Counted from the stretch's first letter, positions 15,256 to 62,754 are shown. The stretch is DNA of 64,000 nt from Chiloscyllium plagiosum (GCF_004010195.1 NC_057718.1:57522660-57586659); one strand, 5' to 3'. The notes: generated by a model not told the origin, from the letters alone. Numbers and translations are program-made.

Positions 15256-15990
15256 GGAGAAAGTGAGGACTGCAGATGCTGGAGATCAGAGCTGAAAATG
15301 TGTTGCTGGAAAAGCACAGCAGGTCAGGCAGCATCCAAGGAGCAGGAGAATCGACATTTCGGGCATGAGCCCTTCTTCAGGAATGAGGAGAGTGTGCCAA
15401 GCAGGTTAAAATAAAAGGTAGGGAGGAGGGACTTNNNNNNNNNNNNNNNNNNNNNNNNNNNNNNNNNNNNNNNNNNNNNNNNNNNNNNNNNNNNNNNNNN
15501 NNNNNNNNNNNNNNNNNNNNNNNNNNNNNNNNNNNNNNNNNNNNNNNNNNNNNNNNNNNNNNNNNNNNNNNNNNNNNNNNNNNNNNNNNNNNNNNNNNNN
15601 NNNNNNNNNNNNNNNNNNNNNNNNNNNNNNNNNNNNNNNNNNNNNNNNNNNNNNNNNNNNNNNNNNNNNNNNNNNNNNNNNNNNNNNNNNNNNNNNNNNN
15701 NNNNNNNNNNNNNNNNNNNNNNNNNNNNNNNNNNNNNNNNNNNNNNNNNNNNGGGGGGGGGGAAATGAGGAAACTGGAGAAATCTGAGTTCATCCCTTGT
15801 GGTTGGAGGGTTCCTAGGCGGAAGATGAGGCGCTCTTCCTCCAGCCGTCGTGTTGTTATGGTCTGGCAATGGAGGAGTCCAAGGACCTGCATGTCCTTGG
15901 TGGAGTGGGAGGGGGAGTTGAAGTATTGAGCCACGGGGTGGTTGGGTTGGTTGGTCCGGGTGTCCCAGAGGTGTTCTCTGAAACGTTCCG
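15256..15990 (-). mobile_element. PLE 3' fragment (GIY-YIG C-terminus + pLTR with hammerhead motif) nested in CR1; contains the assembly gap
   Basis: Minus ORF VAQYFNSPSHSTKDMQVLGLLHCQTITTRRLEEERLIFRLGTLQPQGMN; flanked by caagta (15250-15255 / 15991-15996); CR1 resumes on both sides. Confidence 0.88.
15435..15752. other. Assembly gap (318 N)
   Basis: Run of n. Confidence 0.99.
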
Positions 15991-17969
15991 CAAGTATCTT
16001 GCATCAGTGTTTAATGTGCAGGAGGTCATGGAAAATATAGAATGTGGGGAAATAGATGGTGATATTTTGAAAAATGGCCATATTACAGAGGAAGAGGTGC
16101 TGGATGTCTTAAAGTGCATAAAGGTGGATAAATCCCCAGGACCTGATCAGGTGTACCCAATAACTCTGTGGGAAACTAGGGAAGTGATTGCTGGACACCT
16201 TGCTGAAATATTTATATCACTGATAGTCACATGTGAGGTGCCAGAAGACTGGAGGTTGGCTAACATGGTGCCACTTTTTCAGAAACGTGGTAAGGACAAG
16301 TCAGGGAACTGTAGACCAGTGAGCCTGACATTGGTGGTGGGCAAGTTGTTGGAGAGAATCCTGAGTGGCAGGATTTACATGTATTTGAAAAGGCAAGGAC
16401 TGATTAGGGTAGTTCACATGACTTTGTGCGTGGGAAATCATGTCACGCTAACTTAATTGAGTTTTTTGAAGAAGTAACAAAGAGGGCAGAACAATGGTCA
16501 TGATCTATATGGACTTCATTAAGGCATTTGACAGGTTCCTCATAGTAGCCTGGTTAGCAAGATTAGATCTCACAGAATACAGGGGGAACTAGCCATTTGG
16601 ATACAGAACTGGCTCAAAGGTAGAAGACAGAGGGTAGTGGTGGAGGGTTGTTTTTCAAACTGGAGGCCTGTGACCAGTGGAGTTCCACAAGGATTGGTGC
16701 TGGGTCCACTACTTTTCGTCATACTCTCAATGATTTGGATGTGAACACTGGAGGTATAGTTAGTAAGTTTGTACATGATACCAAAGGTATAGTGGCGTGA
16801 AGCAGGTTATCCAGATTACAACGGGATCTTGATCAGATGGGCCAATGGGCTGAGAAGTGGCAAATGGAGTTTTGGATAAATGTGAGGTGTTGCATTTTGA
16901 ACAGGCAAATCAGAGCAGGATTTACACACTTAGTGGTAAGGTCTTAGGGAGTATTGCTGAACAAAGAGACCTTGGAGTTCATAGTTCCTTGAAAGTAGAT
17001 TCGCAGGTAGATAGGATAGTGAAGAAGGTGTTTGGTATGCTTTCCTTTATTTGTCACAGCATTGAATATAGGAGTTGGGAGGTCATGTTGTAGTTGTACA
17101 GGACATTGGTTAGGCCACTTTTGGAGTATTGTATGCAATTCTGGTCTCCTTCCTATATGAAGAATGATGTGAAACTTGAAAGAGTTCAGAAAAGATTTAC
17201 AAGGATGTTGCTAGGGTTGGAGAGTTTGTGTTATGGGGAGAGGCTGAATAGGCTGGGGCTGTTTTCCCTGCAACATCAGAGGAGGCTGACAGGTGATATT
17301 ATAGAGGTTTCTAAAATCATGAGGGGCATGGATTGGGTAATAGTCAAAGTCTTTTCCTTGGGGTGGGGGAGTATGGAACTCGAGAGAATAAATTCAGGGT
17401 GAGAGGGGAAAAATTTGAAAGGGACTTACAGGGCAACTTTTTCACACAAAGTGTGGTATGTGTATGGAATGAGCTGCTAGAGGAAGTAGTGGAGCATAGC
17501 ACAATTACAACATTTAAAAGGCATCTGGATGGTTATATGACTAGGAAGGATTTAGAAGGATATGGGCCAAATGCTTGCAAAAAGGACTAGAATAGTTTAG
17601 GATATCTGGTCGGCATGGATGGGTTGGACCAAAGTGTATGTTTCCATGCTGGACATCTCTATGACTCAATGGCTCCATGTTGTGTTAATGTCAGAGCTGA
17701 GTTGAACAGCAGTACTCCATTGCTGGATAAAACCAGGGTGAAGGAAGTAGTGCAGACTGTTCCGCAAGTGGTTTTCACCTGTTCCTGTATGAGATTCAAT
17801 CTCATCTTCTCTTGAAAGTATTGCAGGTGGGTCATCAGATAGTTAGGAATGATGCCAAAGTAATTTGACATTGGTTTGTGGGTGAGCAGCTGACTGGACA
17901 TGAACTGGACATAAAGTTCTTCCTTAGCCTTCAGGTTGTTTAGGTGGATAATTCAAATGGCAGTCTTAG

Positions 17970-18315
17970 CAGTGATAATACCATGAGGCCATTGCCTCAG
18001 CGAAGGTATTATCAATAGACTATTAATCTGGAGATCTAGCTAATGTTTTGGATTTGAATTCTGCAATGACAGATGATGAAATTTGAATTCAATAAAATTC
18101 TGGAATTAAGTCTAATGATGACCATGACACCATTGTCAGGAAAAAAACATTTTGTACACTAATATCCTTTCGGAAAGGAAATTGCTGTCTTTACCTGGTC
18201 TGGCCTACATGTGACTCTAGGCCCACAGCAATGCCATTGAGTCTCAGTTGCCCTCTGGCAATTAGGATTGGTCAGTTAATGGTGGCCTAGCCAGCTATAA
18301 CTGTGAATAAATAAA
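17970..18315 (+). mobile_element. tRNA-derived SINE (head homologous to 29770-30057, LINE-type 3' tail) with a short inverted copy of its head at 17970-17998
   Basis: ggtattatca...ctattaatc...cctggtctggcctacatgtgactc...gccctctg matches the reverse complement of 29805-30040; continues into the gcaattagga tail. Confidence 0.65.
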
Positions 18316-19477
18316 GAATGATCACAGTCTCTCTTTGTTGAAATTGGCTTCCAGAAAGCATGGATCTTCCTCAAAGACTTGTAGTTCTTTATCTTGGAAA
18401 TCCAGGATCAAGTCTTCAACATACATTAAAGAGCTGTGAATTTGTGGGAGGAACATTACTATTATATATATTGAAAAGAGTCAGTGTGAGGACTTATCCA
18501 GATTAGTCATGCATTGGTTGGCTGATATGATCTCCAAGTACACATAGAAATGTTTGCTGCTGACCATAAAGTTGACTAATTGTAGGATTTTCACATAGCA
18601 GGTGATTTTGGTGATTTTCAGCAGCATGCCTCTGCACTATCCTGTGTCATTGGCATGGCAGAAGTCAACATCGACAGTCAGTGTCTTCATGTCCTTGTGG
18701 AAACTGGCCTCATCATGAAAAGTTAGTATCAGAACCTGCTCCGATCTGTTGCATCCTGTGTTTTGCATGGAAAGGTTTTGTGCACTTATTTTGTGTCGAA
18801 CATATACAGTTATTGGCAGGGCTCTGGGTGTATAGCTCAACAAAAAGACCTAGGGGTTAGAGTGCATAGTTTCTTGAAAGTAAAGCCGCAGTGGACAGGG
18901 TGATGTAGAGGGTGTTTGGCATGCTTGCTTCATTGGTCAGAACACTGGGTATAGGAGTTGGGACGTCATGGTTTGCCTGTATCGGACACTTGTAGAATAA
19001 AGCACAATTCTGGTCACCCATCTGTAGGAAGGATGTTGTTAAAATTGAAAGACAGCTGAAATGATTTACAAGGATGTTGCTGGGACTGGATTGAGCTATA
19101 GGGAGAGGCTGAATAGGCTGGGGCTATTTTCCTTGAAGCGTTGAAGCCTGAGGGGTGACCTCATAGAGGTTTATAAAATCATGAGGGGCATGAATAGGGT
19201 GAACAGCCGAAGTCTCCCCTGGGGTGGGGCAGTCCAAAACTGGAGGGCATAGGTTTAAGGTCAGGGAGGAAAGATTTAAAAATGGCCTAAAGGGTAACTT
19301 TTTCATCCATAGGGTGGTGCTTGGAATGAGCTGTTGTAGGAGGTTGTGGAGGCTGGTACAATTATAACACTTAAAAGGCATCTGGATGAGTATATGAATG
19401 GGAAGGGATTAGAGGGATATGGGCCAAATGCTGGCAAATGAGACTAGGTCAGATTGGGATGTCTGGTTGCTACAGAT

Positions 19478-19692
19478 CACCCTCACCTTAATCTCCTTCC
19501 GCCTATCGCATTTCCAACGTCCCTCCTCCCTACCTTTTATCTCAGCCCGCTTGGCACAATTTCCTCATTCCTGAAGAAGGGCTCATGCCCGAAACGTCGA
19601 TTCTCCTGCTCCTTGGATGCTGCCTGACCTGCGCTTTTCCAGCAATACATTTTTAGCTCTGATCTCCAGCATCTGCAGTCCTCACTTTCTCC
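19478..19692 (+). mobile_element. 215-bp PLE pLTR-derived insertion with 11-bp TSD
   Basis: TSD ttgctacagat at 19467-19477 and 19693-19703; body is the reverse complement of the 15256-15430 pLTR. Confidence 0.88.
19566..19603 (+). ncRNA. Minimal type I hammerhead ribozyme motif (intact core)
   Basis: CATTC CTGAAGA A GGGC TCAT GCCC GAAA CG TC|GATTC; palindromic ACGU helix III; predicted cleavage after 19598. Confidence 0.75.
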
Positions 19693-19889
19693 TTGCTACA
19701 GATGAGTCTGGTTCCATGCTGTGTGACTCTAAGACTCCATAAGGGCTTGAGATGTCTGTTTGTTCTTGTGCAGGCAAAATGGAGATGGTACAAGCATGCA
19801 CCTCTTATATCCCCTCCACCTTTCCCCAGCAGCGCAGCCTTGCATTCTCCTGTCCCCTTCAAACTCCCAAGAAGTGCAACCTGGTCAGA

Positions 19890-19984
19890 GTTGAAACTTT
19901 ATTGCTGGAACAGCACAGCAGGTCAGGCAGCATCCAGGGAACAGGAGATTCGACGTTTCGGGCACAGGCCCTTCTTCAGGAATC
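19890..19984 (-). mobile_element. Short PLE pLTR fragment
   Basis: ttgctggaacagcacagcaggtcaggcagcatcc..., same family as 15256-15390. Confidence 0.82.
19947..19984 (-). ncRNA. Minimal type I hammerhead ribozyme motif (intact core, perfect 5-bp helix I)
   Basis: Minus strand GATTC CTGAAGA A GGGC CTGT GCCC GAAA CG TC|GAATC. Confidence 0.8.
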
Positions 19985-22497
19985 AAACAAGATGAACAGC
20001 AAGAAAACTGCGATAAAAGTGAAACACTATTTCTCTATTTCACACTGACTCTGTGCAATTTCTAACCAGAGGTGAGTTTTGCATACTGTAAAACTACACA
20101 GAGGAGGCCCTTTGGCCCATCCAGTCTGAAATGACCTATCGACACTAATTCCACTTTCCAGCACTTGACCCATAGCCTTAAAATGTTATGACAATTAAAG
20201 TCCTTATCCACATTCTTTCTGCATATGATGAGATAACAGGCGTGCTTGACCCGGATGGTGTAAGGGTGTCAAAGAAGCTCAAACTGAAATCACTCAAGCT
20301 CAGACAGCTGCCATCATGCCTGACCATTGGAGGTTGTTAAAGAGTGTGCAGAGATTCCCAGTAATCCAGTCACCAGTCCTTCATCTGCTGTAAGGGAGTG
20401 GCAGTGGTTCCATGGAGCACACACCTCTCTCAGGAAGCAGTCACACTTTTGACATTCCACACTTTGCTGTTATCTGACAGTCAGGCAGCTGACCCAGACT
20501 GCTGTTACCTCTGCCAAGGCAGTGTGGTCTGCTGTCAGGCTTTATTAACCAAGAGCTGAGCGAAGACATCCACCAAGGCCATCTATAGATGTCCCCACTG
20601 ACAGTCAGCAGCCTTTCATCAGCTACTGGGGCAGCCACTAGTGTGGCGCTGATAGTGACATTAGGGTCAGGCAAACACAAATTGGGGACAGGCTGTGAGA
20701 GAATGGAGAAAGGTAATTAGATTATATTCAATATTGTTTAAAATACATATTTTGTGATTCCTCTAATGTTGCATTGTAGCCATTTCTGTGATGGTTCATA
20801 ATTGAGGGGAGTTAAGGTTATATTTACTGGTATTGTGATCAAATGAGTTCTTCACAGGCAGCTGTCCAGAAAGGGCCTGTCCAGGATATTGTTTCCCTTT
20901 CTCTTAGTTTGCTTCTTTCTCAACGACTGCTGGTGGCAGGAGCAGTGTCCTCGAGCAGATCACCACGTAACCTGCCATGCACTTTCTCAAGTACTTCAAT
21001 ATTCCTTCAGAGTAGCCCAGGCAGAGAAAGAACTGTATCAGCATTTGATTCTCTCATCGTGTTTGTACACTGTATGCACACTGCGCTTGCATGTCAGTGT
21101 GTTGTATCCTGGAGATATTAACCATATTGTCAGTTGTTAGCCTGTAGCACCTCACAGGCACTCTGGTTTACTGCATCATGGAGAACTCCGTGAGGATGGT
21201 AAATCAGTGTGCTCACTCCACCTGCTACTGTTTGCCAAGCGAGAAAGAATTGTCATTATTTTTCATCGGGTAATAGGTCTTTGGGAACTCTTTCAAACTG
21301 TTTTGCAAACACTTCTTATAAAACAATGAATAGCAACTCTACTGAGTTACCAAGTGTCTCCAGCGCCACCCTAGACAAAGTCAGACAGATAATGGTGTTA
21401 CCAATGTCACCTTCACATCCACTGACACAATTGTCCTTTTCCTGTTTTGACGTTACAGTCATGGCAACAGAATTCAATGAGGACATTGTTACTAAAGTAC
21501 AGGTATCTCATGCCTTGCTTCCCCTTGAGATTTACAAAGAAGCAACGCTCCCTGAATGCTCGGAGTAGATGTGACCTTCGGCAGAGAAAATCCCTCTCTT
21601 TCCTTTTTTTCCTTTTTCTAATAGCTTACTGTGATTTTTATGTTCCATTCTCCAAGTTAGGTTGAATTCTAAAAGAAATGCTGACTAGAGTATCCAGGTT
21701 TGAGAGCGACTGTTTTTTGTAGAAGCCTTGAAGTCGGCTTCATAAACACTTGCCAAGCCACTAACTGTAGATTTATGAAACATTATGCAATTCTAGCAAA
21801 CATTAAACACTAGTAGAATTGAAGCAACAGCCAGAAGAAATCAACTAGGAAATAACCAGTAAGCAGTTGATAATCTGAGGGACAATTCTGCTGGTGGAAT
21901 ATGTGTTCAGCTTTGTGAAGGTAAGAGAGGGCATTGGTTGAAACATTAATGCCCAAAATGGCAACCTGGAGTGAAATCAGCAATGTGCCCTGTCTAATGC
22001 CTGCCTGTTCTGTATGCTTTCAGAGCCTGCACCCTGATGCCCCTACCAATATGGCATCCAGCAATACCAGAGATGTGCATTTATCGATATGAGTGCCATT
22101 TTGGAGTAAATTTATTTTGTAATGACAATTCAAATGCTCTGCATTTCTAGCCTTATATTTCACTCTAAACAACAAACAGATGCAACAAGCAACAGATGTG
22201 TCCAAAAACACTAACATCATTGCAAAATATAGTGTTATTGTACATTTTTATATTTTAAACAAAGTGCTTTTTAATACCACTATGCTTATTCACAATTCTC
22301 TGTACTATTCCTAAAACTATGAAATACCTGTGATCCAATGAGTTTTCCACTGTGATCTTGTCAGTCTCTTGGGACCAAATGCCTCTTAAGGCTTTTGAGT
22401 CTGTGACAGGCATACAGGAATGTGGGAAGCTTGACCCGATACCTGGTACTACAGGAGCAGGTAGCTGAAGACAAGGACTAAACAGATCATATGAGTT

Positions 22498-22817
22498 TTA
22501 GATTAGATTAGATTCCCTACAGCGTGGAAACAGGCCCTTCGGCCCAACAAGTCCACACCAACCCTCCGAAGAGTAACCCACCCAGACCCATTTACCTCTG
22601 ACTAATGCATCTAACACTATGGGCAATTTAGCATGGTCAATTCACCTAACCTGCACATCTTTGGACTGTGGGAGGAAACCAGAGCACCCGGAGGAAACCC
22701 ACACAGACACTGGGAGAATGTGCAAACTCCACACAGACAGTCACCCAAGGCTGGAATCAAACCTGGGACTCTAGTGCTGTGAGGCAGCAGTGCTAACCAC
22801 TGAGCCACCATGCCGCC
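22498..22817 (-). mobile_element. HE1-like V-SINE (tRNA head, V-domain, CR1-type tail)
   Basis: Minus strand A box TGGCTCAGTGG, B box GGTTTGATTCC, V-domain GTGGAGTTTGCACATTCTCCC...GGGTTTCCTCCGGGTGCTC, tail (AATCT)n. Confidence 0.88.
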
Positions 22818-25650: not shown

Positions 25651-26021
25651 GTTTGTGGGGTGAATTTGTACTTGCAGAATTACGTTTATTTTGCTCAAAA
25701 ACTGCTTAAATCCATGTAAGATTCTGTAAATCCTTTTTTTAGATTTGAAGCAGTCTGAACATTGTGGCACAGACAGTCTCACACAGGACACCTCACAATG
25801 GCATCATCTGGACCAACATGGCACCTATTGTTAAAGTTCGCTTGAGAATGTAACTTTAAGAAAGTTCTGGAATTTACATATGAAAGAAGTGAAACCAATA
25901 TGGCCATTCTAAAAGATGAGAGATTTAACAAACAATCCAGGTCTTTTTCAATAATTTCAGTTACATCACACTGTAAACTTTTGCTATAAATTCTGTGTCC
26001 TACGATCTTATACTCCACAAC

Positions 26022-26056
26022 CACCTGATGAAGGAGCAGTGCTCCGAAAGCTAGTG
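26022..26056 (+). ncRNA. Minimal type I hammerhead ribozyme motif, second family
   Basis: CAC CTGATGA A GGAGC AGT GCTCC GAAA GC TA|GTG; palindromic AGCU helix III; predicted cleavage after 26053. Confidence 0.75.
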
Positions 26057-26584
26057 CTTCCAAATAAACCTGTTGGACTATAACTTGGTGTTGTGTGATT
26101 TTTAACTTTGTCCACCTCAGTCCAACACTGGCACCTCTAAATCATGATTCCTCAACATTGCATATTTTCCATGTTCCACATGATTAGAATGACACCAGGC
26201 CAGTGGCTTCCAGTATGACCATCAACCTGTTACTCTGAGCCCCAATAAGACCCTATCCTTCCTCGGTGCCATTCCCTGAACCTCCCATGATTCAGGCTTC
26301 TCCAGGTCCTTCCAGGTCATACACCTGCCCACGACTTCACCTCAACCCAATCATAGCCACCATTCCTCTTAGTAGAGAAGACTGATGGGTCGTGTAATTG
26401 GCTGGGTTGGATTTGTCCTACTTTTTATGTATAGGGCATGCATGGGCAGTTTTCCACATTGTCACGTTGATGCCTATAAAAGCTTGGCTTGGGGAGTGGC
26501 AAGTTCTGGAGCACAAGTCCTTAGTATTATTGCTGGAATATTGTCAGAGTCCATAATATCCAGAGTGTCCAACCATGCCCACCA

Positions 26585-28090
26585 CCAATGTCAGACCGGT
26601 GGTGCGCCTGACATCAGTGGTTCGCAAATTGTTGGACGGAATCCTGAGGGACAGGATTTACATGTGTTTGGAAAGGCAAGGACTGATTAGTGACAGTCAA
26701 CATGGCTTTGTGTGGGGGAAATCATGTCTCACTAACTTGATTGAGCTTTTTGAAGACATAACAAAAAGGATTGATGACAGCAGAGCAGGGGAAGTGATCT
26801 ACATGGAGCCATTCCTGATGAAGGGCTTTGGCCCGAAATGTCCATTTTCCTGCTCCTCAGATGCTGCCTGATCTGCTGTACTTTTCTAGCACCACTGTAA
26901 TCCTGACTGTGATCTACATGGACTTCAGCAAGGCGTTCGACAAAGTTCATCATGGTAGACTGGTTAGCAAGGTAGATCTCATGGAATACAGGGAGAACTA
27001 GCCATTTGGATACAGAACTGGCTTGAAGGTAGAAGACAGAGGGTGGTGGTGGAGGGTTATTTTTCAGACTGGAGGCCAGTGACCAGTGGAGTGCCATAAG
27101 GATTGGTGCTGGGTCCACTGCATTTCATCATTTATGTAAATAATTTGGATGTGAACAAAGAAGATATAGTTTGTAAGTTTGCAGATGACACCAAATTGGA
27201 GGTGACGTGGGCAACAAAGAAGGTTACCTCAGAGTACAATGGGATCTGATCAGATGGGCCAATGGGCTGAGGAGTGGCAGATGGAGTTTAATTCAGATAA
27301 TGTGAAGTGCTGCATTTTGGAAAGGCAAATCAAAGCAGAACTTAAACATTTAACAGTAGGGTCCTGGGGAGTGTTGCTAAACAAAGAGACCTTGGAATGC
27401 AGGTTCATAATCCCTTGAAAGTGGAGTCGCAGGTAGATAGGATAGTGAAGAAGGCGTTTGATATGCTTTCCTTTATTGGTGAGAGCATTGAGTATAGGAG
27501 TTGGGAGGTTGTGTTGTGGCTGTACAGGACTTTGGTTAGGCCACTTTTGGAATATTTACTGCAGTTCTTGTCTCCCTTCTATCAGAAGGATGTTGTGAAA
27601 CTTGGAAGGTTCAGAAAAGATTTACAAGGATGTTACCAGGGTTGGAGGATTTGAGCTACAGGGAGAGGCTGAATAAGGTGGGGCTGTTTTCCCTGGAGCA
27701 TTGGGTGCTGAGTGGTGACCTTATCGAGGTTTATAAAATCATTAGGGGCATGGATAGGATAAATAGACAAGGTCTTTTCCTTGGGGTGGGGGGAGTCCAG
27801 AGCTAGAGGGCATAGGTTTAATGTGAGAGGAGAAACATTTAAAGGGACCTAAGAGGCAATGGTTTTACGCAGAGTGTGGTGTGTGTATGGAATGAGCTGC
27901 CAGAGGAAGTGGTGGAGACTGGTACAATTACATTTAAAAGGTATCTGGATGGATGCATGAATAGGAAGGGTTTAGAGGGATATGGGCCAAGTGCTGGCAG
28001 GTGGGACTAGATTAATTTATGATATCTGGTCAGCATGGACGAGTTGGACTGAAGGGTCTGTTTCCATGCTGTGTGCCTCTATGACTCTAT
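26585..28090 (+). mobile_element. CR1 5'-truncated copy (RT to tail), nested in an older minus-strand LINE and itself interrupted at 26808-26908
   Basis: SQHGFVWGKSCLTNLIELF; tttgcagatgacacc (FADDT); YRTLVRPLLEY; tail ctctatgactctatg. Confidence 0.92.
26808..26908 (+). mobile_element. 101-bp hammerhead-headed PLE-derived insertion with 14-bp TSD
   Basis: TSD gtgatctacatgga at 26794-26807 and 26909-26922; insert starts gccattc CTGATGA AGGGC TTTG GCCC GAAA TGTC. Confidence 0.9.
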
Positions 28091-28172: not shown

Positions 28173-28511
28173 GTAGAATCATAGAATCCTGACAGTGTGG
28201 AAGCAGGTCATTCAGCCCATTGAGTTCATACCAACACTGCAAAGAACTTCCAATCCATACCCATCCCCACTACCTTATTCTGCATCCCTGCATTTTCCAT
28301 GGTTAATCCACCTAGCCTGCACAACTTTAGATACTACAGAACAATTTAGCATTGTCAATCCACCTAAACTGCACATCTTTGGATTGTGGGAAGAAACCAG
28401 AGAAAATCTATACAGACTCAAGGAGAATGTGTAAACCCCAAACAGACAATCACCCGAAGATGGAATCAAACCTGGGTCCCTGGCACTGGGGTGCTAACCA
28501 CTGAGCTGCCC
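28173..28511 (-). mobile_element. HE1-like V-SINE
   Basis: Homologous to 22498-22817. Confidence 0.85.
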
Positions 28512-40633: not shown

Positions 40634-40859
40634 GCAGAAGTGGGTACTGTAGATGCTGGAGATCAGAGTCAAGATTAAAGTGGCGCTGGAAAAGCACAGC
40701 AGATCAGGCAGCGTCTTAGGAGCAGGAAAATCGACGTTTCGGGCAAAAGCCCTTCATCAGGAATTCCTGATGAAAGGCTTTAGCCTGAAATGTCAATTTT
40801 CCTTCTCCTCAGATGCTGCCTGACCTGCTGTGCTTTTCCAGCACCACTCTAATCTTGAT
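40634..40859. mobile_element. 226-bp head-to-head inverted pLTR doublet with two hammerhead motifs and 15-bp TSD
   Basis: TSD ccacatttgtctttg at 40619-40633 and 40860-40874; arms about 40669-40760 and 40767-40858 centred on gaattc (40761-40766). Confidence 0.9.
40729..40766 (-). ncRNA. Minimal hammerhead motif (intact core), sense to EFEMP1 pre-mRNA
   Basis: Minus strand GAATTC CTGATGA A GGGC TTTT GCCC GAAA CG TC|GATT; predicted cleavage between 40733 and 40732. Confidence 0.75.
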
Positions 40860-41534
40860 CCACATTTGTCTTTGTTAATCTCTTTTCACATACCTAATGA
40901 AGCTTTTACAGTTCACCTTTGTTTCTCATTTTTGTCTTGCATTCATTTCCTCTTTTACCTTTATCAGTTTCTTAGTTATCCTTTGCAGGATTTTAAATTG
41001 CTCCCAATCTTCAGGCTTATTGATGTTTTTGGTTACCTAATAAGCCACTTCCTTTAATCCAGTGCTCCGTTGACTTATTTTCTTAGCCATTTGTTCAATG
41101 TTCCTGTTGCATGTCTTTTTAAAATTATAGATGCATATAGACATGTTACAGTCCATGTAATACTTACTTAAATATGAACTATTGTCTGTCTCTCAGCAAA
41201 TCTTTTAGTGTACTTTTCCAATCCACATAATCCACTTGCCTCTTTTAGATTCATGGTTTCCTTTGTTCAGATATTAAGAACCCCATTTCAGAATGAATTA
41301 TATCACTTGCAATATAAAATTTTATCATACTGTGTTCACTTTTTTCCCAAATGTTCCTTTCAGAAAGATTATCAATTAGCACTTTCTTATTACATATTTG
41401 ACATGATCTCATCTTTACTACTTTTCTTTATTGTAGAACACATGGAAAAGGATACTGCTTTAAACCAAGAAAACTGTGGAAGGAGATGTAGCAGTTTTAA
41501 TGCAATTACTGAACCCATTGTCTGTTATATTTAT

Positions 41535-41670
41535 GGTGTACTAAAGAAGGGTCACTGGGCCCAAAATAATAACTTTTCTCACCACAGATACTGTGATACC
41601 TGCTGAGTTTCTCCAGCAGTTTCTGTTTTTGTTTCAGATTTCCAGCATCCGCAGTTCTTTGTTTTATTTT
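41535..41670 (+). mobile_element. Decayed pLTR fragment (family of the 6878-10190 element) with degenerate hammerhead
   Basis: ctaaagaagggtcactgggcccaaaa...cctgctgagtttctccagcagtttctgtttttgtttcagatttccagcatccgcagttcttt. Confidence 0.7.
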
Positions 41671-44600
41671 ATTATATATTTACACTGTTGCCTTGCTCAA
41701 GCAGTGTGGGAGGATTGCTCATCAACACCATGCCTGTGTGTTTCAGGCAGTTTTGCTCAGAGATAGTCTGGTGTCTGAAATCAGGAATGGGTTAGGAATA
41801 ATCAGCATGACAACAACTCTGAGAGGCTGTTTATCTGCCCAGAAGTCAATGTGTGAACAATACAGGTGCAAAAGGACTCCAGACTCTAAAAGGACTGTAA
41901 CTCTCTCTCCTTGTGAAGAAGGAATGCAGAATTGGAAGATAGCTAGTTATTCTCACTCTTGATTTGCCCTTGAGCTGCCTCTAACTGGTGAAAAGCTGAA
42001 CGATTAGTATATCAACTGCCCTTTGCCTTCAGTAAAATACCTAAGAGACTTGGAAAGAAAAAGAGGTGAGATCAGAATGACTCAGAAGAAGCAAAAGGAC
42101 ACCACATTGAACCCTGTGGATTGGTGCAATTGAACCATGTTCTCTTTTTTGTTTTTCTCACCATCCGTAATACCAGAGCTTTTTTTTGTTTGTCGGTGTC
42201 CATGTGCCTCCATGTATAAGGATTTAGGAAGGATCAGAATTTAAGTTAAAGTGTTATAAGTTGATAAATTTTACTTTGTTTACCTGTGGTTAGATCTGAT
42301 TTATTTGTAATAAGTAGTAGTTTCTTGAATGATGTATTCGATGAATTGGCATTTGACAGCAAGTAAAATGAAAGATTTTGAATAATTTAATTAAAATCTT
42401 TCACTTTTGTGATCACTGCAGGCTTAGTGGAGCTTAAGTGTCATTATACTTTCCCAAGTTGGTCAGGACATATTACAAGATAACGTTAACATTTTGGATC
42501 ATTGATTTTCAGTACTGACTTGAAATCTTGACCCAACGAGGTGTTCTTCAAAGTGCTGTTCCAGAAACCATCCTCCACAGCAACATGATAGATTAGGTTT
42601 TGCCAGTCAATATGGAAATTAAAGTTGTCCTTTATTACTTCAAGTGATGCATATCACCATTTTCCCCTCAAACTTCAATGTTTATCAATCTGACAAGAAA
42701 GGCTGAGATCCAGGATTTTAATGATCCAACTTCATTTGACTTTCTTTACTCAGTTTCCTTCACAACAGCCATTCAGATTGAGAGACTGATTGACTTCTGT
42801 AGAAGAGCCTGACCCACAGGGCTAGGCTGAGGTGTCAATTGCAGAGATGGGTTCACTGACCACAGGAAGAAAAGCAGATCACTGCTGGTTAGTTTGGGAT
42901 GCTGGGAGTGGAGGTAGCATCCTTTGTGAGGCTGCGCTCAATTTTACAAATACAAATTACTGTTACATTAAACAAGAGCAAAATTCAGCAAATGCAAGAA
43001 CCCTGAATTATAAATGTATAGTACTCTAAAACACTCAGAGGACTGGCAGCTTATATGGAGCCTGAAACAAATATAGTATTTCTAGTTGATGATCTTTTAT
43101 TTTTATATGCTTTCTATGTACTAATTTCAACAATTTCAGTCCTTAGTTGTATGGGTCTTTACACTACTGAAAATATAGATGTGGAACACACAGATTGATG
43201 GCATGTGGTGTAATAATGTGTCAATGACCATTGTAATGACACTAGTTCATGATAAATATTACAGCATTGAACTAAGAACAGGAAAACATTAATTAAAAGT
43301 TACATACTAACACAGCCAACATCTGGAGAGAGAAAAACGAAAGAGTAGTTTGGAATCATTTCGACCATCAGAACTGAAATTAAAATGTGAACAAGACATG
43401 TTTTCAATCTTTCTTTCCCCTTAGTTCTCTTTCTGCATCTGATTTAGTTGAACAAACCCTCCTCATTCACCCTCTTCCTCCTTAAACTTTTTGATTCTGA
43501 AATTTTATTGTATAATGAGTCACACTGTTGGTTTGATTAGTCACCAATTCTCAGACCTCCCCACTGACCCCAACACACACACACACAGCAACTATCTGGA
43601 CAAAATGTTTCAAAATAAAATGTCTAACTAATGGGACAGATTGAGAATTTTTCACAATGCACTATCTGGCCCAATTAATATGTTTACAAATTATTTTTAA
43701 CAAATTCTTTGAAAATTTATTTCTATACTGTTGTACACGATAATGATTCTGAAAGGGTTAATATTGGAAACCACACACAATCTAATTTTGCCATGTTGCC
43801 TTGGGTGGGATGACAGAAAATCTTAGGACCTTATGAACTGCAGACTTATATTCAAAGTCTTAATAACAGTACCTAATGAACTAATGTAACTTGTGCTTTT
43901 CTGATATCATGCAATAAACTACATCCTGTTAAGACAACAGCATCTTCTTCTTCAGGCATAATTATGGTTGATCCTCAACAATAGAAACCAATCAGTTCTT
44001 TGGTCCCAGTCAAAGGAAAGAAGATTGGTGATCTCGTCCTCATACCTACAAATACCACACATATTATTTACAAATTAATCTGATGTGTATATATTTAATG
44101 CTATGAAAGAGATGTGATAATTGAAATAGGATGTAATATCAATACCTGAATGATAATCAGTAATAATTTTTTTTAGAAATCAAGAGAGACTTCTTTACTC
44201 AAACATCAATTAGAATGAAAAACTTGGTATTGCAAGGAGCAATTGAGGCAAATGTTATATATAGGAAGAAAAGAATAAAACATATTGCTAGTAGAATGAT
44301 TTGAAGTACAGTGGAATATAAACACAGGTATAGAATAGTTGAGCCAATATTGAGCATAGCTGCTGTAATTCTGATTAATTTGATTAAATAATTTTGTATG
44401 GCTTTGAAAAATTTAGCAATTTTGGCTGTTCAGCTTTGTGTTGATTACTCAGTGATAATTAGCAGCTTTTATTGCTGACCCAGTGAATACAATCACTTTT
44501 GAGATGTTAGTATTTTGTCAGTTGAACATTAGAATCTACCAGCCTGGTAAGTTAATGTGTAATAAATTATCAAAGCTGATGTTTGACATTTTTAAGGATT

Positions 44601-46120: not shown

Positions 46121-47839
46121 CTAAAGGGGAAATGGAAATATATTTAAAACATTAACTCTGTTTCTTTCTCCATAGTTGTTGTCAGACTTGCAGGGTTTCG
46201 CCAGCATTTTCTTTGTTTGTTTAATTCCTATCTGTCTAGGTGCTGTTCCAAAATATACCTTGCCTTACATTGAAGCCAAAATTGCTTCAGTATCATGTAA
46301 AATATACAACATATATCACAATGGTCTGAATTCTACCTTTACTGCTTCACCAGACATTTGCCGAAGAAACTGTTCTTTACTCACCCACCTCACACGTACA
46401 ACTGGGCAGGTCACGGCAGCCATCTTTAATAGTGATGTCCCTTTTCTCATTAGGAATATGCATACTATTTTTAAAGGCACATTTACACCGACTGACTTTC
46501 AGGCCTTTCATGGAATTCTTTCCTAGTACCTTTATATCCATCCAAGTATAATTTGATTAATATAATTTAAGAAGGCAGTGTAGTTATGAACATGGAGGGT
46601 ACTGAGTGGACGTTATACCCTCCTTTGATGGTGAGGCAGTGTGACTGATGGGGAGCTTTCCAGTGCAAATGTAATTTCAGATCAAGATGAAAGTCACTCT
46701 GGAAAAGCTTGACCTGGAAGTGGCACACCAACGTCAAACAATGCAGTTTACCCATTGAGTAGCATAGTTTCCTTGGATGGTAATGGACTACAGTGGCTTT
46801 CAGATCTGGATGAAGTTGCAACCATTGTACATTTTTTTATGGAGCCACTTGAAGTGACGAAGTATCCTAACAGAGAGGGAACACGATTTGTGGGAGTCAT
46901 GATAACCGTGCAGAGATTTTAAGCCAATGTTAACATGGACACTTTTATCTAATGTTCCCCTGAGACTTTTTTTTCTTCAAAGCAGTCAATACTTTACATA
47001 AACAGTAGACTTTCATTCCACTTGAGTAAGTTCTGACACTTTTTTGAATATTGCAGGAAATTATTACATTTTTCAAAGGATTGCTGACTGTTACATTTGG
47101 CACACAAAACCTCTCCACTTTAAATAGAGATTAGCATTCATAACAGTGTACATTCAGACTGGGATACCCTAAAGAGAAAGAAAGCCAAGTGTTAATTTAT
47201 CCAGTCTATTTATCCAGAACAGTCCACGAGGCACAGTAACAATCTCCAGATTCCCTCAGGTTCTGCCTGAAATATTGTTTCATTTATTTTGATTTTTCCT
47301 TAGTAGCACTGAATTGTCAGTTTAAGAAAACAGTTTTTATAGGTGTCCAATGAAAATATCTACTGTAAAGTACAGAATGCAATACAGTAATCAAGGTCAA
47401 ATCTGTGTTTACTCCTAAAGGAAAAAGCCAAAATCTAAAGATTGACTTGACATCCCTCAGCCAGAGGCAAGTAACAATAAAGCATCTGTTAAGAATGCTC
47501 TATGAAGAAGTTTGCTCTTTCCAAATTCTCTTCTGGACTCACTAAGGTTCAGTCTCATAAGCCCTGAGATTCATCCAGGACCTACCCAAATGGCCATGTT
47601 TCAGCTAAAAGTGTCGGCACTGGCCCAGATTTTCCTTGGTGCCTCACCTACTCCACCACTTGTGGAAATACGATGCAGACTCTGTCAATGTGATAACTGG
47701 AGTCCCTACTATGCATTTGGTAGAGTTAGGATGACAGAGTGGAAGCAGCTCCCAAGAAATTCTAGACCATTGATCCTTGGTGAACAACATGTTCACAGTG
47801 ATATGTCTGCCAAATTGTGCCCTGTTAGCACATGTGTAT

Positions 47840-50067: not shown

Positions 50068-50201
50068 GTAGGAGCAAATTACTGCAGATGCTGGAATCTA
50101 CACTGAACACAACAAATGCTGGAGATCACAGCAGGTCAGACAATATCCATGGAGACAGAGCAAGCTAATGTTTCCAGTTTAGATTACTTTTCATCAGAGC
50201 T
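50068..50201 (-). mobile_element. Older pLTR fragment with partly decayed hammerhead at 50163-50201
   Basis: Minus strand AGCT CTGATGA aaagtaatctaaactg GAAA CATT AGCT. Confidence 0.7.
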
Positions 50202-50802
50202 AACTCTAACCACCTGATTACTATCTGTGCCTCCCCTTCAACCTTCCCCTATGCAACTTCTCAACTCCTAGCGAGATCAACCATGAAGTATTGAATTGTG
50301 GACAATGCTCAATGAGCCGAACAGCTTGCTCCTGCTTGTGTTTCCGATATTCTTGAATTTGTATGTTTTCCGAGCCTCAGGAAACCTGACAGCTGAAAGG
50401 AGGTTAGGATTGCTGCATGTAAGTGATAAGTACTTCTTGCCACTACTTTTCGGCTGAGGAGGAGGTGTTCTTTTCCCTAGGACTCATCATCTTCAGTTAT
50501 TTCCCCCTGCCCTGCAACTATGATCCTCAGCTCACCAGAGGATCTCCATGATACATCAGTTTATTTCCTTCATGCCCTCCCCAGATCCCTTGCTATCTCC
50601 TCACTTTCTCCCCCAATCTTGCCTGCCCATCTGACCATGACCCTCGCTCCCTTAAACTTTGTGACTTTTCCAGTGATGCACCCACACCTTCCTTGATCTC
50701 TTACTCCCTTCTCTTAACTTCCTAGCATCTAACATACTACCAGCCACCCAACCTGACTAGCTGCAGCCAGAAAGTAGAATGTAAAAACTGTAATTATAGT
50801 TC

Positions 50803-51112
50803 ACAGAATCCCTACAGTGTGAAAGCAGGCCATTCAGCCCATCGAGTCTATACTAATCCTCCGAAGAGCATCCCACCCAGACCCAATCCCTATCCTATCC
50901 TTGTAACCCTGTATTTCCCTAACACTGAACACTATGGACAATTTAGCATGGCCAAACCACCTAACCTGTACATCTTTGGACTGTGGGAAGAAACCCACAG
51001 AGAAACAGGGAGAATGTGCAAACTTAACACCAATAGTCACCCAAAGGTGGAATCAAACCTGGTCCCTGCTGCTGTGAGGCAGCAGTACTCACGACTAAGC
51101 CACTGTGCCACC
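50803..51112 (-). mobile_element. HE1-like V-SINE
   Basis: Homologous to 22498-22817. Confidence 0.85.
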
Positions 51113-54369: not shown

Positions 54370-54454
54370 CTGTTTCAATAAAGTGAAAAAAACCACAAAT
54401 GCTTGCATTTCTGTAATACTTTTTATGATCATCAGGCATCACGAAGTGTTTTAT

Positions 54455-58123: not shown

Positions 58124-58417
58124 ACCTTCAGATCTTCAGCATCTTCAGATATCTGACTCTGTAATAACTATTGCAGCTGTCATTAACTTCTAATTATTGT
58201 ATGAGGTGCAGTTGTCTCATCCACTAAACCGTATCCACTTTTTGTGGCCTATGCAAGCTGTGATCTAGTAGAGATATTGGGTTAAAATGTGCTTCAATGT
58301 TCCCAGAGGAATCCATGTTTAAGCACAATGTTCCACAGTGGTGTCTGAAGATGAGCCAATCAAGGATCAATGTCAAGAATGTTTCCAAAGTTCCATCCAT
58401 GACACACAACGATGTCA

Positions 58418-58512
58418 GGAGACAGTGAGGTCTGCAGATACTGGAGATCAAACTTTTTGCTGGAAAAGCACAGCAGGTCAGGCAGCATCCGAGGAGCAGG
58501 AAAATCAACATT
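58418..58512 (-). mobile_element. Short pLTR fragment truncated inside the hammerhead
   Basis: ggagacagtgaggtctgcagat...gagcaggaaaatcaacatt. Confidence 0.78.
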
Positions 58513-58572
58513 AAAGACAATCTGTAGTTCCCAGTGGCAAGCAATGGGAATCTATTTTTAATACATTTAATA

Positions 58573-58881
58573 GGGGCGGCACATGGCTCAGTGGTTAGCA
58601 CTGCTGCCTCACAGCACCAGGGTCCTAGGTTCAATTCCATCCTCGGGTGACTGTGTGGAGTTTGCACATTCTCCCAGTGTCTACGTGAATTTCCTTCGGG
58701 TGCTCCGGTTTCGTCCCACAGTCCAAAGATGTGCAGGCCAGGTGAATTGACCATGCTAAATTGCCCATAGTGTTAGGTGCATTAGTCGGGGGGGGGGGTG
58801 GATTACTCTTCGGAGCATTGGTATGGACTTGTTGGGCCGAAGGGCCTGTTTCCACACTGTAGAGTATCTAATCTAATCTAA
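58573..58881 (+). mobile_element. HE1-like V-SINE, full length
   Basis: A box tggctcagtgg, B box ggttcaattcc, V-domain, tail (aatct)n. Confidence 0.9.
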
Positions 58882-59319
58882 CAAAAATATTAACATACTC
58901 ATTAAAACTTAGTCACCAGATTGAACTCAACCAGGGCACCATGGGGAACATATTTGGAATCTCTCAGTTTGCTACACACACACATGCATTAGGAACTTCA
59001 TCAATGCAGTGCTTAAATACACCAATGATATTGTGCCATTCACAGAGGGCCCTAAGAGCCAGGCAGCCAGACAGTCAGATTTGGTTCCATAGCTGGAATT
59101 GATAGCTCCTTGAGAACAGCCATCATCTTTCACTGAAAATAAATCCCAAAAGTGTTACTCACTTCTCAGGATCACCTGTGATTTATGCATTATCAGTCAC
59201 TCTGAGGTAGAACCACAAGGATGGCTCCTGGGTGACAGGTGATACCCTCCAAAAGAACTGGCTGATGATATCTCTTCAGATCCCACTGGAGAAGTCATAT
59301 AATGCTTCCCATGCCACAA

Positions 59320-59656
59320 GGAGAAAGTGAGGACTGCTGGAGATCTCAGAATCAAGATCTGTTGAACAGCTTCCTCATTTCCCCTCCCCCCACATTATTC
59401 CAGTCCCAATCCTTCAACCCAGCACCACCCTCTGGACCTGTCCATCACTCCCCCCTCTAACCTATCACCTTCTCCCTCACCTTCATCCACCTATTGCTTT
59501 CTCAGCTACCTTTCCCCAAACCCGATCCCCTCCCATTTATCTCTCAGCCCCGACCCACACGCCTCATTCCTGATGAAGGGCTTATGCCCGAAACTTCGAA
59601 TCTCCTGCTCCTTGGATGCTGCCAGACCTGCTGTGCTTTTCCAGCACAGACTCCAA
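59320..59656 (+). mobile_element. PLE pLTR insertion with inverted 5' piece, hammerhead motif (59565-59602, one helix III substitution) and 15-bp TSD
   Basis: TSD cttcccatgccacaa at 59305-59319 and 59657-59671; CATTC CTGATGA AGGGC TTAT GCCC GAAA CTTC GAAT. Confidence 0.88.
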
Positions 59657-59947
59657 CTTCCCATGCCACAACAAAAGCAACATCAAAACAAAACCATTGG
59701 ACTGCTGAAGGTGAGATTCTGCTTTCTAGTCTGCTCAGACAGAACACCATAGTGCTACACAGACCTCCAAGATCACTTGGTCTCCTGCACCATACGTAAC
59801 GGAGCACAAACAGCTCTGAGGCAGATGCTGGTGCGCTTTGTCCTCTCTGACCACAGCAGAAGCAAGGACACTGGAGGGTGGTCTAGATAGCTAAGCCCTT
59901 CCTGCCTATCCAATATAAAACCCAGAGCCAGAACGATGGGATGTGTA

Positions 59948-60498
59948 GACGAAAATGAGGACTGCAGATGTTGGAGATCAGAGTCAAAAAGTGTGGTGCT
60001 AGAAAAGCACAGCTGGTCAGGCAGCATCCAAGGAGTAGGAGAATCAACGTTTTGAGCATAAAATCTTCATCAGGAATGTGGAGTGGGCCCAAGGGGGCTG
60101 AGAGATAAATGAGAGGGAGGGTGAGGCTGGGGGGGTAGGTAGCTGAGAATGCAATAGGTGGATGATGGTGATAGGTTAGAATGGAGGATGGAGCAGATAG
60201 GTGGGAAGGAAGATGGACAGTTCAAGAGTGTGGTGCTGGGTTGGAGGGTTTGATCTGGGATAAGGTGGGGGGAGGGGAGATGGGGGAAACTGGTGAAATC
60301 GACATTGAGTCCCATATGGTTGGGGGGTCCAAGGCGGAAGATGAGATGTTTTCCTCCAGTCGTCGGGAAGCTAGGATTTGGTGGTGGAGGCGGCCTAGGA
60401 CTTGCATGTCCTTGGCGAAGTGGGAGGGTGAGTTGAAGTGATTGGCCACAGGGTAGTGGGGTTGTTTGGTGGGACATTCTCTGAAACGTTCCGCAAGT
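59948..60498 (-). mobile_element. PLE 3' fragment (GIY-YIG C-terminus + pLTR, degenerate hammerhead)
   Basis: VANHFNSPSHFAKDMQVLG; near-TSD tgggatgtgta (59937-59947) / tgggatatgta (60499-60509). Confidence 0.87.
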
Positions 60499-61608
60499 TG
60501 GGATATGTATCCAAGGCATATTCAGGCAGCCACTGAATGTTCTGCGAGACCTGGCTTCCTGTGCCAATCACCACCCTCTCCAAGGAGGAAGCCACGACAG
60601 AACCCTTGGCTTAGATGGGCTCCACAGTTCTTTGCTGAAGACAGTGTATAGCCGTAGGCACCTCAGCCAGATGTTCTCCTGCCATCCACAGTAGGTTTCT
60701 TCTGGTTGTATGTAGCAGCCTACCATTGGCACAGCCTTGTCTCCAGGTGCCCTCTCAGTGCCAGAGTCCTCCGCTATCACATTCTCCACCAATTGCTGTG
60801 ACATTATCAGTGATGTGTTCCCCAGATTGAGAATATAAGTCTAATCACTAATATATTGTCACCATGGAGGGATGATGTATCCTATGAATGTTCTTCTTCT
60901 TCAAATATGGTGTTCCAGCTTGTTGCAGACTCTGAGAAATATAAGAATTAGCTTTCTGTTACATATTATCCTATTTTCCATTACATGTACGTATCTTCTC
61001 TATGCCTACTTCTTGACACCAGGTTAGAAACAACTCTGTTTTGTTCTGTCGATACTTCAGCCTTGCTGCTCACAACTGAGTGTCCATCTTGCTGTGCAGC
61101 CAGTTCGACTGCTGCCTCCTTGTAAGCATGAATGTTTAGAGGACATGACACCCACCCTCGAGTACTCTCTGATGTTTCATGCTCTTTTGTCCTGCACGCA
61201 GATATAAAGATTGACCTTTAAAAGCACGCAGACCTACAGCAGCTAATATTACCTCACACAATGATCCGCAAGCATTCTCCTGACACCAGTACAACTGGCT
61301 GCAAGACATTCTTTCTACATATTCCGACTGACCTTAAAGCCTGGAACCCAAACATTCGCCTCCTATATCTTTCCATGTGAATTTTTACATTGCTTATTGC
61401 TGTATTGCGTGCCACTTTGCACACACATCCTTGCAGAGTGCGGCGAGGCATTGAGCTTTTTACGACATTGAACCCAGTTGTGCTTGTGGCCTTGGTGACT
61501 GCTCACTTCCACTGCGAGCTCCATCCAGGCTACCTTGGTCAGATGGGAGAGACTCCTGCTGTCATCTGTCTTTGAAATAAATTGTTTTGACGAATGTTAA
61601 TATGACAT

Positions 61609-61990: not shown

Positions 61991-62009
61991 GCCACTTTTC
62001 TTCTAAACA

Positions 62010-62066
62010 AAATGGACGGGTTGGACCGAAGGGTCTGTTTCCATGCTGTACATCTCTATGACTCTA
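62010..62066 (+). mobile_element. Very short CR1 3' tail
   Basis: atggacgggttggaccgaagggtctgtttccatgctgtacatctctatgactcta. Confidence 0.8.
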
Positions 62067-62077
62067 ATAGAGTGTCA

Positions 62078-62299
62078 AAAGCTGAAGCTGCTGAAAAAGC
62101 TCAGCATGTCTGGCAGCATCTATGGAGAGAAATCAGAGTTAACATTTCAGGTCCAGCGACCCTTCCGTGAGTTCTGAGGAAGGATCACCAGATGTGAAAC
62201 ATTAACGCTGATTTCTCTTCACAGATGCTGCTAGACCCGCTGCGCTTTTCCAGCAATTTCTGATTTACAGCATCCATAGTTCTTTTGGCTTTTCTTTAG
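62078..62299. mobile_element. Second head-to-head inverted pLTR doublet (different family), degenerate hammerheads
   Basis: Near-TSD taatagagtgtca (62065-62077) / taatggagtgtca (62300-62312); arms inverted around about 62170. Confidence 0.78.
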
Positions 62300-62689
62300 T
62301 AATGGAGTGTCACAAGTCAGTATGATACGTGACTTTGTAGACAATGTTGCTTTATATTATGGAATCCAGTTCCAGGCTGGGTTTGCCTTCAATCTGGATA
62401 CTGCATTTACAAGGAAGGCCTAGCCTGGGTTGGTCATCAATCTTTCAGGTTGCTGATAAGATCAAACCTAGCTGGGCAAAGATTTTAATTTGTGTTAATA
62501 AATATTCAATTTAGCATAGAATGTATGTCGTCCATTTGCTTTACGGTATATTGCTTGGATGTAGTTAAAGGCTTAGGTTTTTCTGATAGTGTTCATATGA
62601 TGTGTCAATTCAACCACATGTACTGTCTGACTAGGCTATTGCCAGCTATAACATCGCAGTTAGCTCTTGAACTTAATTGACATTGTTGG

Positions 62690-62754
62690 TGTTGAGAGTG
62701 TGTTGCTGGAAAAGCACAGCAGGTCAGGCAGCATCCGAGGAGCAGGAAAATCGA
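62690..62754 (-). mobile_element. 65-bp pLTR fragment
   Basis: gagagtgtgttgctggaaaagcacagcaggtcaggcagcatccgaggagcaggaaaatcga. Confidence 0.8.

Follow-up and report, generated by a model that had tools for sequence, protein, structure and literature searches.

Minimal hammerhead ribozymes (min-HHRs) in the terminal repeats (pLTRs) of metazoan Penelope-like elements (PLEs) were described in 2014 by Cervera and de la Pena (PMC4209133), with hosts including fish, coelacanth (about 4,000), Xenopus (about 9,000) and reptiles. Neptune PLEs are treated by Craig et al. 2021 (PMC8557442) and Arkhipova et al. 2013 (PMC3846280), a literature that includes a rotifer pLTR with a TATA and Inr-like pair. In the Poseidon element of Anolis (Frangieh et al. 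2024, PMC11167929), both target strands are cut and extended, the RNA template is uncut and the hammerhead is protein-dependent. Non-LTR retrozymes (Cervera and de la Pena 2020, PMC7229834; Li et al. 2026, 10.64898/2026.07.22.740005) form a further group, for which 126,247 motifs are given in axolotl. In two reviews, the role of the PLE hammerhead is still termed unknown (PMC7761336, PMC8557442).

We analysed a 64,000-nucleotide window of the shark Chiloscyllium plagiosum (GCF_004010195.1 NC_057718.1:57522660-57586659), whose features are collected in Table 1. The hammerheads of the window are of the known kind, now extended to a shark lineage at very high density. It is highly probable that they are the pLTR hammerheads of a Neptune-type PLE (lineages A, C and D), joined by a family B hammerhead probably from a second PLE, and that the numerous short stubs are passengers. 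Several features were absent from the first-pass annotation: a full-length parent (6878-10173, minus strand), which lies outside its range, a hammerhead-deleted pLTR at 6878-7119(-), a truncated inverted arm at 62077-62166(-), and tail-only pieces at 58417-58512, 62693-62758 and 46136-46222.

Table 1. PLE-related features of the window (window coordinates; C3 is a hammerhead core base).
Feature	Coordinates	Strand	Details
Decayed full-length PLE, putatively Neptune-type, pLTR-ORF-pLTR	6878..10173	-	direct repeats and tblastn
3' pLTR, lineage C	6878..7119	-	two deletions
Broken ORF: RT, Cys linker, GIY-YIG endonuclease	7167..9820	-	tblastn to RT and GIY-YIG proteins
5' pLTR, lineage C	9892..10173	-	hammerhead 9952-9996, A6 and A14 changed
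5'-truncated PLE, lineage A	15253..16048	-	GIY-YIG C-terminus, 318-N gap, pLTR, hammerhead 15345-15387, long tail
Truncated pLTR, lineage A	19478..19692	+	intact hammerhead 19564-19606, long tail, 11-bp target duplication
Short copy, lineage A	19885..19984	-	begins 4 nt before C3; core intact; 5-bp helix I, short tail; no target duplication found
Family B hammerhead 26018-26060 with TATAAA 25985-25990	25985..26146	+	intact core, 5-bp helix II
Short copy, lineage A	26810..26908	+	begins 5 nt before C3; 14-bp target duplication; inserted into a LINE RT region
Head-to-head pair, lineage A	40634..40859	.	both arms begin 4 nt before C3 and share 2 nt centrally; one tail long, the other short; 15-bp target duplication; within a fibulin intron
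Decayed short copy, lineage C, three core changes	41534..41687	+	
Weak tail-only remnant, lineage C/D	46136..46222	+	E about 3e-5, low score
Lineage D copy	50071..50204	-	core intact, first helix II pair broken
Lineage A piece, long tail	58417..58512	-	begins inside GAAA, about 6 nt upstream of the cut site
Inverted tail, then truncated lineage A pLTR (59367-59646 +)	59320..59656	.	hammerhead 59563-59605; 15-bp target duplication
5'-truncated PLE, lineage A	59945..60539	-	GIY-YIG remnant, whole pLTR, long tail; hammerhead 60038-60080, G12 changed
Head-to-head pair, lineage C	62077..62301	.	plus arm begins at helix I (hammerhead 62167-62211), minus arm inside the core; weak 8-12 bp duplication
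Lineage A piece, short tail	62693..62758	-	begins near GAAA

Read site by site, all 13 hammerheads of the first-pass annotation were found where it had placed them, on the strands it had given. At the four sites it called intact (19566+, 19984-, 26022+ and 40766-), none of the 11 fixed core bases is lost, helix II is paired, and helix III is a palindrome with Watson-Crick pairing. Of the sites it listed with point decay, 60078 (G12), 9995 (A6, A14) and 41540 (G5, G12, U16.1) have a changed core; in the six others (15385, 26811, 40762+, 59565, 62169 and 50201) the core bases are complete and the changes lie in one of the helices II and III or at position 1.1. All 11 core bases are present in 10 of 13 correctly anchored copies, a mis-anchored row at 62165 being excluded. 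A strict scan (CUGANGA, helix II of at least 4 bp, GAAA, NNUH; helix I unused) returned 8 cores against a mean of 0.08 and a maximum of 1 in 300 order-3 Markov simulations, and adding the palindrome condition left 4 sites against 0.02 expected. A covariance model built from 14 sites recovers those 14 by construction, with no further match below E 0.1 in the window, a density of one motif per 4.6 kb. Rfam models gave no hammerhead match on these motifs, and scanning viral and metagenome contigs for the exact pattern gave 0 matches. The best Rfam matches were microRNA models, below threshold, on both head-to-head pairs. Non-CpG differences in lineage A fall at 0 of 80 core and 17 of 208 tail positions (p 0.004), a contrast we do not count as support because the core was the basis on which copies were chosen and part of the tail variation distinguishes subfamilies; likewise, the core identity across lineages (66/66) is by construction.

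The five loops named by the first-pass annotation are correct, and the helix II pairing it described holds in 31 of 32 pairs across eight family-A copies; in family B this helix has 5 bp. An extra A follows A9 in all rows, and helix II opens on G10.1-C11.1. In the alignment used for covariation, 89% of helix II cells are paired and 9 of 9 pairs show two-sided change, counts lowered by a family B row one position out of register and a truncated 62165 row. Four picked representatives of the lineages pair helix I at 14 of 16 positions (p 8e-5; strand-swapped control, 20/48), and the 10 intact-core copies do so at 31 of 40, which gives type I closure; in the lineage-A form seen most often, helix I contains a U.U mismatch and only 2 contiguous pairs. 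The loop-less, palindromic helix III claimed throughout is strict in 4 of 8 strict sites, the rest carrying mostly CpG changes. Type I closure, a missing loop III, the 15.2-16.2 palindrome, the extra base between 9 and 10.1 and G10.1-C11.1 are all shared with min-HHRs (PMC4209133), as are several families per genome, a prevalence of solo copies of truncated PLEs and close opposite-strand pairs. Helix II is 4-5 bp in the window versus 7-8 bp in the Schistosoma min-HHR of that report, whose consulted main text and supplements name no shark. In homodimer cofolding, the catalytic dimer was the top structure in 0 of 10 copies, and folding z-scores of single copies were unremarkable (-1.7 to +0.5).

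Three or more separate families had been proposed at first. Family B does stand apart, but A, C and D share a homologous tail of about 100 nt and are thus branches of one lineage. Family B (26022) has no second copy in the window, and the interval 23.0-26.8 kb contains no PLE protein remnant; a PLE parent for it is therefore assumed.

For lineages A and C, the proposed origin in PLE terminal repeats is directly visible: the motifs lie in a pLTR, 3' of an RT and GIY-YIG frame and on the same strand, with GIY-YIG remnants (at 15.8 and 60.4 kb) directly upstream of those at 15385 and 60078. In the parent, direct repeats at 10173-9892 and 7119-6878 align with 206 matches and 36 substitutions. Its 5' pLTR carries TATAAA at 10022-10017 and an initiator-like A at 9993; in its 3' pLTR, a 10-nt deletion takes the TATA box and a 21-nt deletion takes half the hammerhead, and both motifs on this one element are broken. 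The ORF, with 19-30 stops per frame, has RT followed by a C-terminal GIY-YIG domain in collinear tblastn alignment to 5 full-length proteins with RVT_1 and GIY-YIG; Pfam, run on the decayed window ORFs alone, recognised 0 of 5. The best named relatives are from shark, skate and ray; a weak search for longer protein relatives gave none, and a protein scan of viral contigs found none. In the CX2-5CxxC linker, CxxC and its flanks align, and the first Cys is changed in the window copy and intact in the relatives. The Neptune-type assignment, drawn from this motif and not from a tree, is putative; Nematis also has the motif (PMC8557442). Shared with Neptune PLEs (PMC8557442, PMC3846280) are RT, Cys linker and C-terminal GIY-YIG, direct and inverted pLTRs, an optional 30-40 bp tail, head-to-head palindromic junctions and solo pLTRs. 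Unlike those elements, the window is dominated by very short hammerhead-plus-tail units, and its target duplications reach 14-15 bp, versus 8-10 bp in the Neptune reports.

Most copies are pieces of 95-130 nt. Target duplications of 11, 14, 15 and 15 bp flank 4 of 14 intervals tested, plus one weak case, whereas only 0.3% of random window pairs show a duplication of at least 11 bp. Counted from C3, copies end at +77 to +98 or at +119 to +152 on the 3' side, two alternative ends 30-45 nt apart; the most frequent 3' junction of three related genomes corresponds to 19692-19693 (about 2,900-3,000 contigs per run). A joint in related genomes repeats a 35-nt tail, which resembles the 30-40 bp PLE tail (PMC8557442, PMC11167929). 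At the other end, 4 of 4 lineage-A copies that have the core and lack the upstream pLTR begin at -4 or -5 from C3, and among the listed 5' junctions that have unlike flanks, 19567 ranks first in two of the three runs (495 and 507 contigs). This is no general junction at the hammerhead: the inverted 5' pLTRs of three metagenome elements begin at about +1, -46 and -78 from C3. The high copy number first proposed is supported, and is very high, with about 10^5 matching contigs in related genomes, although contigs give no true copy number; it appears far above that of the min-HHR hosts in PMC4209133. After insertion the copies decay neutrally: G12, which lies in a CpG, is changed at 9-14% like its neighbour (9.3, 14.1 and 10.7% of depth versus 9.6, 13.9 and 11.0%).

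By analogy with published PLE biochemistry, the element protein would nick DNA and then begin reverse transcription from either of two internal sites, which lie about 80-100 or 120-140 nt 3' of the core, with RNA uncut by its ribozyme as the template; priming from both target strands would yield the head-to-head pairs. Two internal RT starts that define the tail are also seen in Anolis Poseidon, where the ORF begins in stem II and the RT starts lie inside it (PMC11167929). Unlike in Poseidon, some 170 nt separate C3 (9989) from the downstream start codon of the parent here (9820, aligned to residue 1 of a relative), and the 3' ends come before the ORF. With less assurance, the pLTR promoter may begin RNA at the first helix I base, and priming at the pLTR nearest the 5' end might run off after 95-130 nt, giving the common short unit. 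Inserted copies are most probably neutrally decaying passengers, and the ribozyme would act, if at all, in the RNA of the source element, as a dimer or with protein assistance.

What the window adds to the known kind is the position of the short-copy 5' ends, at an initiator-like base 4-5 nt before the core with a TATA box upstream; the consulted parts of PMC4209133 make no mention of a TATA or initiator position of the motif. Two window families and 7 of 20 distant PLE lineages have such a box, 30-42 nt upstream (background 2.6%). The canonical box is found in 0 of 4 lineage A copies with upstream pLTR. An initiator was found in 1 of 20 distant PLEs in a window fixed beforehand, and we rejected it as a general rule, since 6/20 was reached only with a post hoc window and an equal peak stood at +60. 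Deriving the 5' end from a splice acceptor, as in D. virilis (PMC4209133), was also rejected, since it fits lineage C (AG there) but not A. The short copies begin at what seems to be the firing point of the element's own promoter. We advance only tentatively, at less than even confidence, the joint reading that many Neptune-type PLEs start TATA-driven RNA at the hammerhead's first base and that run-off copying seeds the stubs.

A possible but doubtful alternative makes the fixed 5' end a processing or stalling point, either an endonuclease cut at ATT or an RT stall or template switch at the fold. The Anolis PLE endonuclease favours 5'-ATT-3' near the ORF-pLTR junction (PMC11167929) and ATT begins the lineage A copies, yet the lineage C arm at 62169 begins at the same point without it, and a stall would be expected on entry to the fold, not on exit. 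Five of 20 distant lineages are also TATA-like when the opposite strand is read, so that an AT-rich target might explain the motif; against this, TATAWA peaks in a single 10-nt bin, at -40 to -31 in 6 of 20.

That the 95-130 nt units are a true non-autonomous, SINE-like family, mobilised by the PLE and copied from short source loci, is unlikely, and the distinct non-autonomous system of the first-pass annotation is not supported in the form proposed. The fixed 5' end, the target duplications and a summed depth upstream of the hammerhead of only 4-20% of that over the core in related genomes would suit such a family. Yet copies of the same lineage reach 88 or 200 nt further, or as far as the endonuclease gene, so that the short units look like PLE RNA copies with a fixed 5' bound. 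Moreover, no tRNA-derived head was found in the short units, a unit beginning at -4 is without the upstream TATA region, the 3' ends alternate between both PLE sites, and part of the depth drop comes from subfamilies whose upstream sequence differs.

Non-LTR retrozymes resemble the shark copies in having type I hammerheads, PLE relatedness and high copy number, and one sampled chondrichthyan carries them (PMC7229834, 10.64898/2026.07.22.740005); they form head-to-tail tandem repeats that give circular RNA, whereas the copies here are dispersed, single or head-to-head, and are not tandem retrozymes. It is very improbable that the short copies arose from ribozyme-cut or circular RNA and act as ribozymes on host transcripts: although ten copies keep a complete core, 7 of these 10 with a self-complementary helix III (G-U allowed), 0 of 4 tandem arrays in the window hold a hammerhead, the two candidates for cleavage-defined 5' ends (58514 and 62758) have homology reaching +21 and +22, upstream of the cut at +28, no +28 junction is among the six listed per run for related genomes, the single intact sense-strand intronic copy is predicted to be locked in a -154 kcal/mol hairpin, and single min-HHRs were uncleaved in vitro (PMC4209133).

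Should the joint reading of a TATA-driven start at the hammerhead be true, the ribozyme would sit at the cap, and the C17 cut would take off only the first ~32 nt plus the cap; the reaction would serve to switch translation or stability rather than to process tandem precursors. RT primed 95-130 nt from the cap would run off, like retroviral strong-stop DNA. With the motif at the transcription start, the role of the PLE hammerhead would be directly testable by 5'-end sequencing, and the stubs would record both the origin point of the RNA and its uncut state at copying. For annotation, such stubs are a hazard, open to being mistaken for intronic ribozymes or microRNA hairpins. Sharks would hold some 10^4.4 to 10^6 stubs headed by a hammerhead, which may be the highest density of ribozyme motifs known for any vertebrate.

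All 13 hammerhead motifs listed by the first-pass annotation were found at its positions when we read the sites in the window. A strict descriptor requiring helix II and NNUH returned 8 cores in the window, where 300 simulations gave an expectation of 0.08, and all 11 fixed core bases were kept in 10 of 13 correctly anchored copies. Helix I, which played no part in finding the motifs, was paired at 31 of 40 positions. With one copy picked for each hammerhead-bearing sequence group (lineages A, C and D, and family B), pairing reached 14 of 16 positions, compared with 20 of 48 when strands were swapped between lineages; the copy used for lineage A has the best pairing of its group, and a U.U mismatch is present in the form of A that is most common. 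Between lineages, helix sequences show just 25-29% similarity. Two-sided change was seen in 9 of 9 pairs, and slid controls scored far lower, with the caveat that related sequences can beat shuffles. The motif is real, was shaped by structural selection in the source elements, and is of a known kind, correctly called at first pass. Hammerheads with a U3-A8 core variant, described previously (PMC4209133), lie beside relatives of Penelope-like elements (PLEs) at three metagenome loci (L041, L051 and L076).

The ascription of the motifs to PLEs held for lineages A and C, which are tied to an element with RT and GIY-YIG domains or to its remnants; for family B it is an assumption. The two-repeat element in the table has flanking terminal repeats (pLTRs) of ~240-280 bp each, 85% identical over aligned bases; its frame aligns collinearly with RT plus GIY-YIG proteins, and the start codon at 9820 corresponds to residue 1 of a relative. 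Its hammerheads, both broken, are the only two motifs sharing one element in the window. We infer that this element belongs to Neptune, because its Cys linker type indicates Neptune or Nematis (PMC8557442) and Neptune is the one of these reported in vertebrates (10.64898/2026.07.22.740005). A shark, a skate and a ray supplied the best named protein relatives, and the window resembles DNA of a cartilaginous fish. GIY-YIG remnants precede, on the same strand, the lineage A motifs at 15385 and 60078, and lineages A, C and D have a common tail. For family B, represented by 26022(+), we found no second copy in the window and no PLE protein match among 151 proteins and the metagenome frames; its parent is assumed to be a PLE from the motif's build. 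The tail (9891-9945(-) and equivalents) contains a stem, a candidate RT initiation signal, that almost all of the 17 copies aligned retain, largely through invariant bases.

PLE-derived intervals, with bounds as drawn here, occupy ~11% of the window. Its sole N gap (15435-15752, 318 bases) falls inside a PLE copy and follows a C run. LINE fragments are also present, as is an exact 162-bp tandem duplication at 297-620, either recent or an assembly artefact. Another dispersed repeat of ~300-400 bp (22489-22779, 28179-28488, 50801-51075 and 58648-58890), whose end resembles LINE tails, is presumably a SINE.

Principal features of the window
Feature	Position	Strand	Evidence
Two-pLTR element with broken RT and GIY-YIG frame	6878-10173	(-)	Protein alignment, repeat comparison
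Fibulin gene	31600-54400	(-)	Exon matches
Head-to-head pair, long arm and short arm, 2 nt common at junction	40634-40859
Inverted tail alone	59320-59656

Exact target duplications of 11-15 bp flank 4 of 14 intervals, with a weak duplication at one more. Counted from core base C3, 3' ends cluster at +77 to +98 and at +119 to +152, matching the optional tail known of PLEs and an Anolis PLE in which two start sites for RT were demonstrated (PMC11167929). The head-to-head pair and the inverted tail would reflect priming from both strands of a single cut; the Anolis PLE protein cuts and extends both strands (PMC11167929). Inverted PLE structures of this kind have been described (PMC3846280, PMC8557442). 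At one metagenome locus (L032:50-207), a 158-bp palindrome surrounds a hammerhead-like core immediately upstream of a PLE ORF.

All four lineage A copies that have the core and lack an upstream pLTR begin at -4 or -5, and 19567 is the top 5' junction among those listed in two of three sequencing runs (495 and 507 contigs). In 3 of 4 lineage A copies for which upstream sequence exists, the -4 base is the A of an initiator-like motif, as it also is in the 5' pLTR of lineage C. This pLTR carries TATAAA 29 nt upstream of the -4 base, and family B carries it 40 nt upstream of C3; canonical TATA is absent from lineage A copies with an upstream pLTR. Because copies start upstream of the cut site (C17, +28), their templates would be uncut, as seen in vitro for an Anolis PLE (PMC11167929).

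Outside the window, 516 metagenome loci have relatives of its PLE proteins, and we examined the best 80 of them. Hammerheads lay on the coding strand in 24 of the 80 (27 matches), with 2 matches on the other strand; one of these 29 had no upstream sequence and was left out, and the rest clustered into 20 lineages. TATAWA at -42 to -30, a range set in advance, occurred in 7 of 20 lineages (three of them related, at 51-69% protein identity) versus 2.6% elsewhere near the same motifs, and the initiator passed in just 1 of 20. These proportions suggest that the TATA-hammerhead link holds for a subset of lineages and that an initiator at the hammerhead is not general. Nor is the arrangement universal, as Penelope of D. 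virilis has a TATA-less promoter and a start further upstream (PMC2377424).

The fibulin gene, presumably Fibulin-3 or -4, has five calcium-binding EGF exons (54370, 48780, 46121, 44864 and 38615) and a Fibulin_C exon near 35.1 kb, and it ends with an exon near 31650. Its introns hold two sense-strand hammerhead copies; the inverted arm locks one of them into a hairpin, and helix II of the other is broken. Folding of the head-to-head pair at 40634-40859 gave a hairpin of 100 bp in intronic RNA (-154 kcal/mol, z -20), which might give rise to double-stranded RNA or editing; both head-to-head pairs give microRNA matches below threshold. In the branch-point zone of the 46121 exon, a short way upstream of its splice acceptor, sits a decayed antisense pLTR tail remnant (46136-46222(+)), a placement that may be due to chance or reuse. 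No hammerhead motif was found in tandem arrays of the window, and judged from sequence its hammerhead copies are most likely inert.

Contigs aligned to 19470-20070 numbered 116,580, 97,933 and 95,501 in three runs from related organisms, of which ~2,900-3,000 per run pass out of the element at 19692-19693 and continue into dissimilar flanking sequence. Summed contig depth is not a copy number; core depth over single-copy depth gives a rough upper bound of 0.76-1.9 million, and allowing 31-fold contig overlap gives a rough lower bound of 24,000-62,000. Other methods have counted about 9,000 minimal motifs for Xenopus (PMC4209133) and 126,247 canonical motifs for axolotl (PMC7229834), and a PLE expansion in whale shark introns has been published (10.1101/443036). 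Among the rows listed, G12 and its CpG neighbour are changed at similar rates (9-14%), so that copies decay neutrally once inserted. A literature search covering few subscription papers found neither shark PLE hammerheads nor the TATA-hammerhead spacing described. The host lineage is new for hammerheads of this kind, the motifs are very abundant in it, and a promoter at the hammerhead is a candidate reading.
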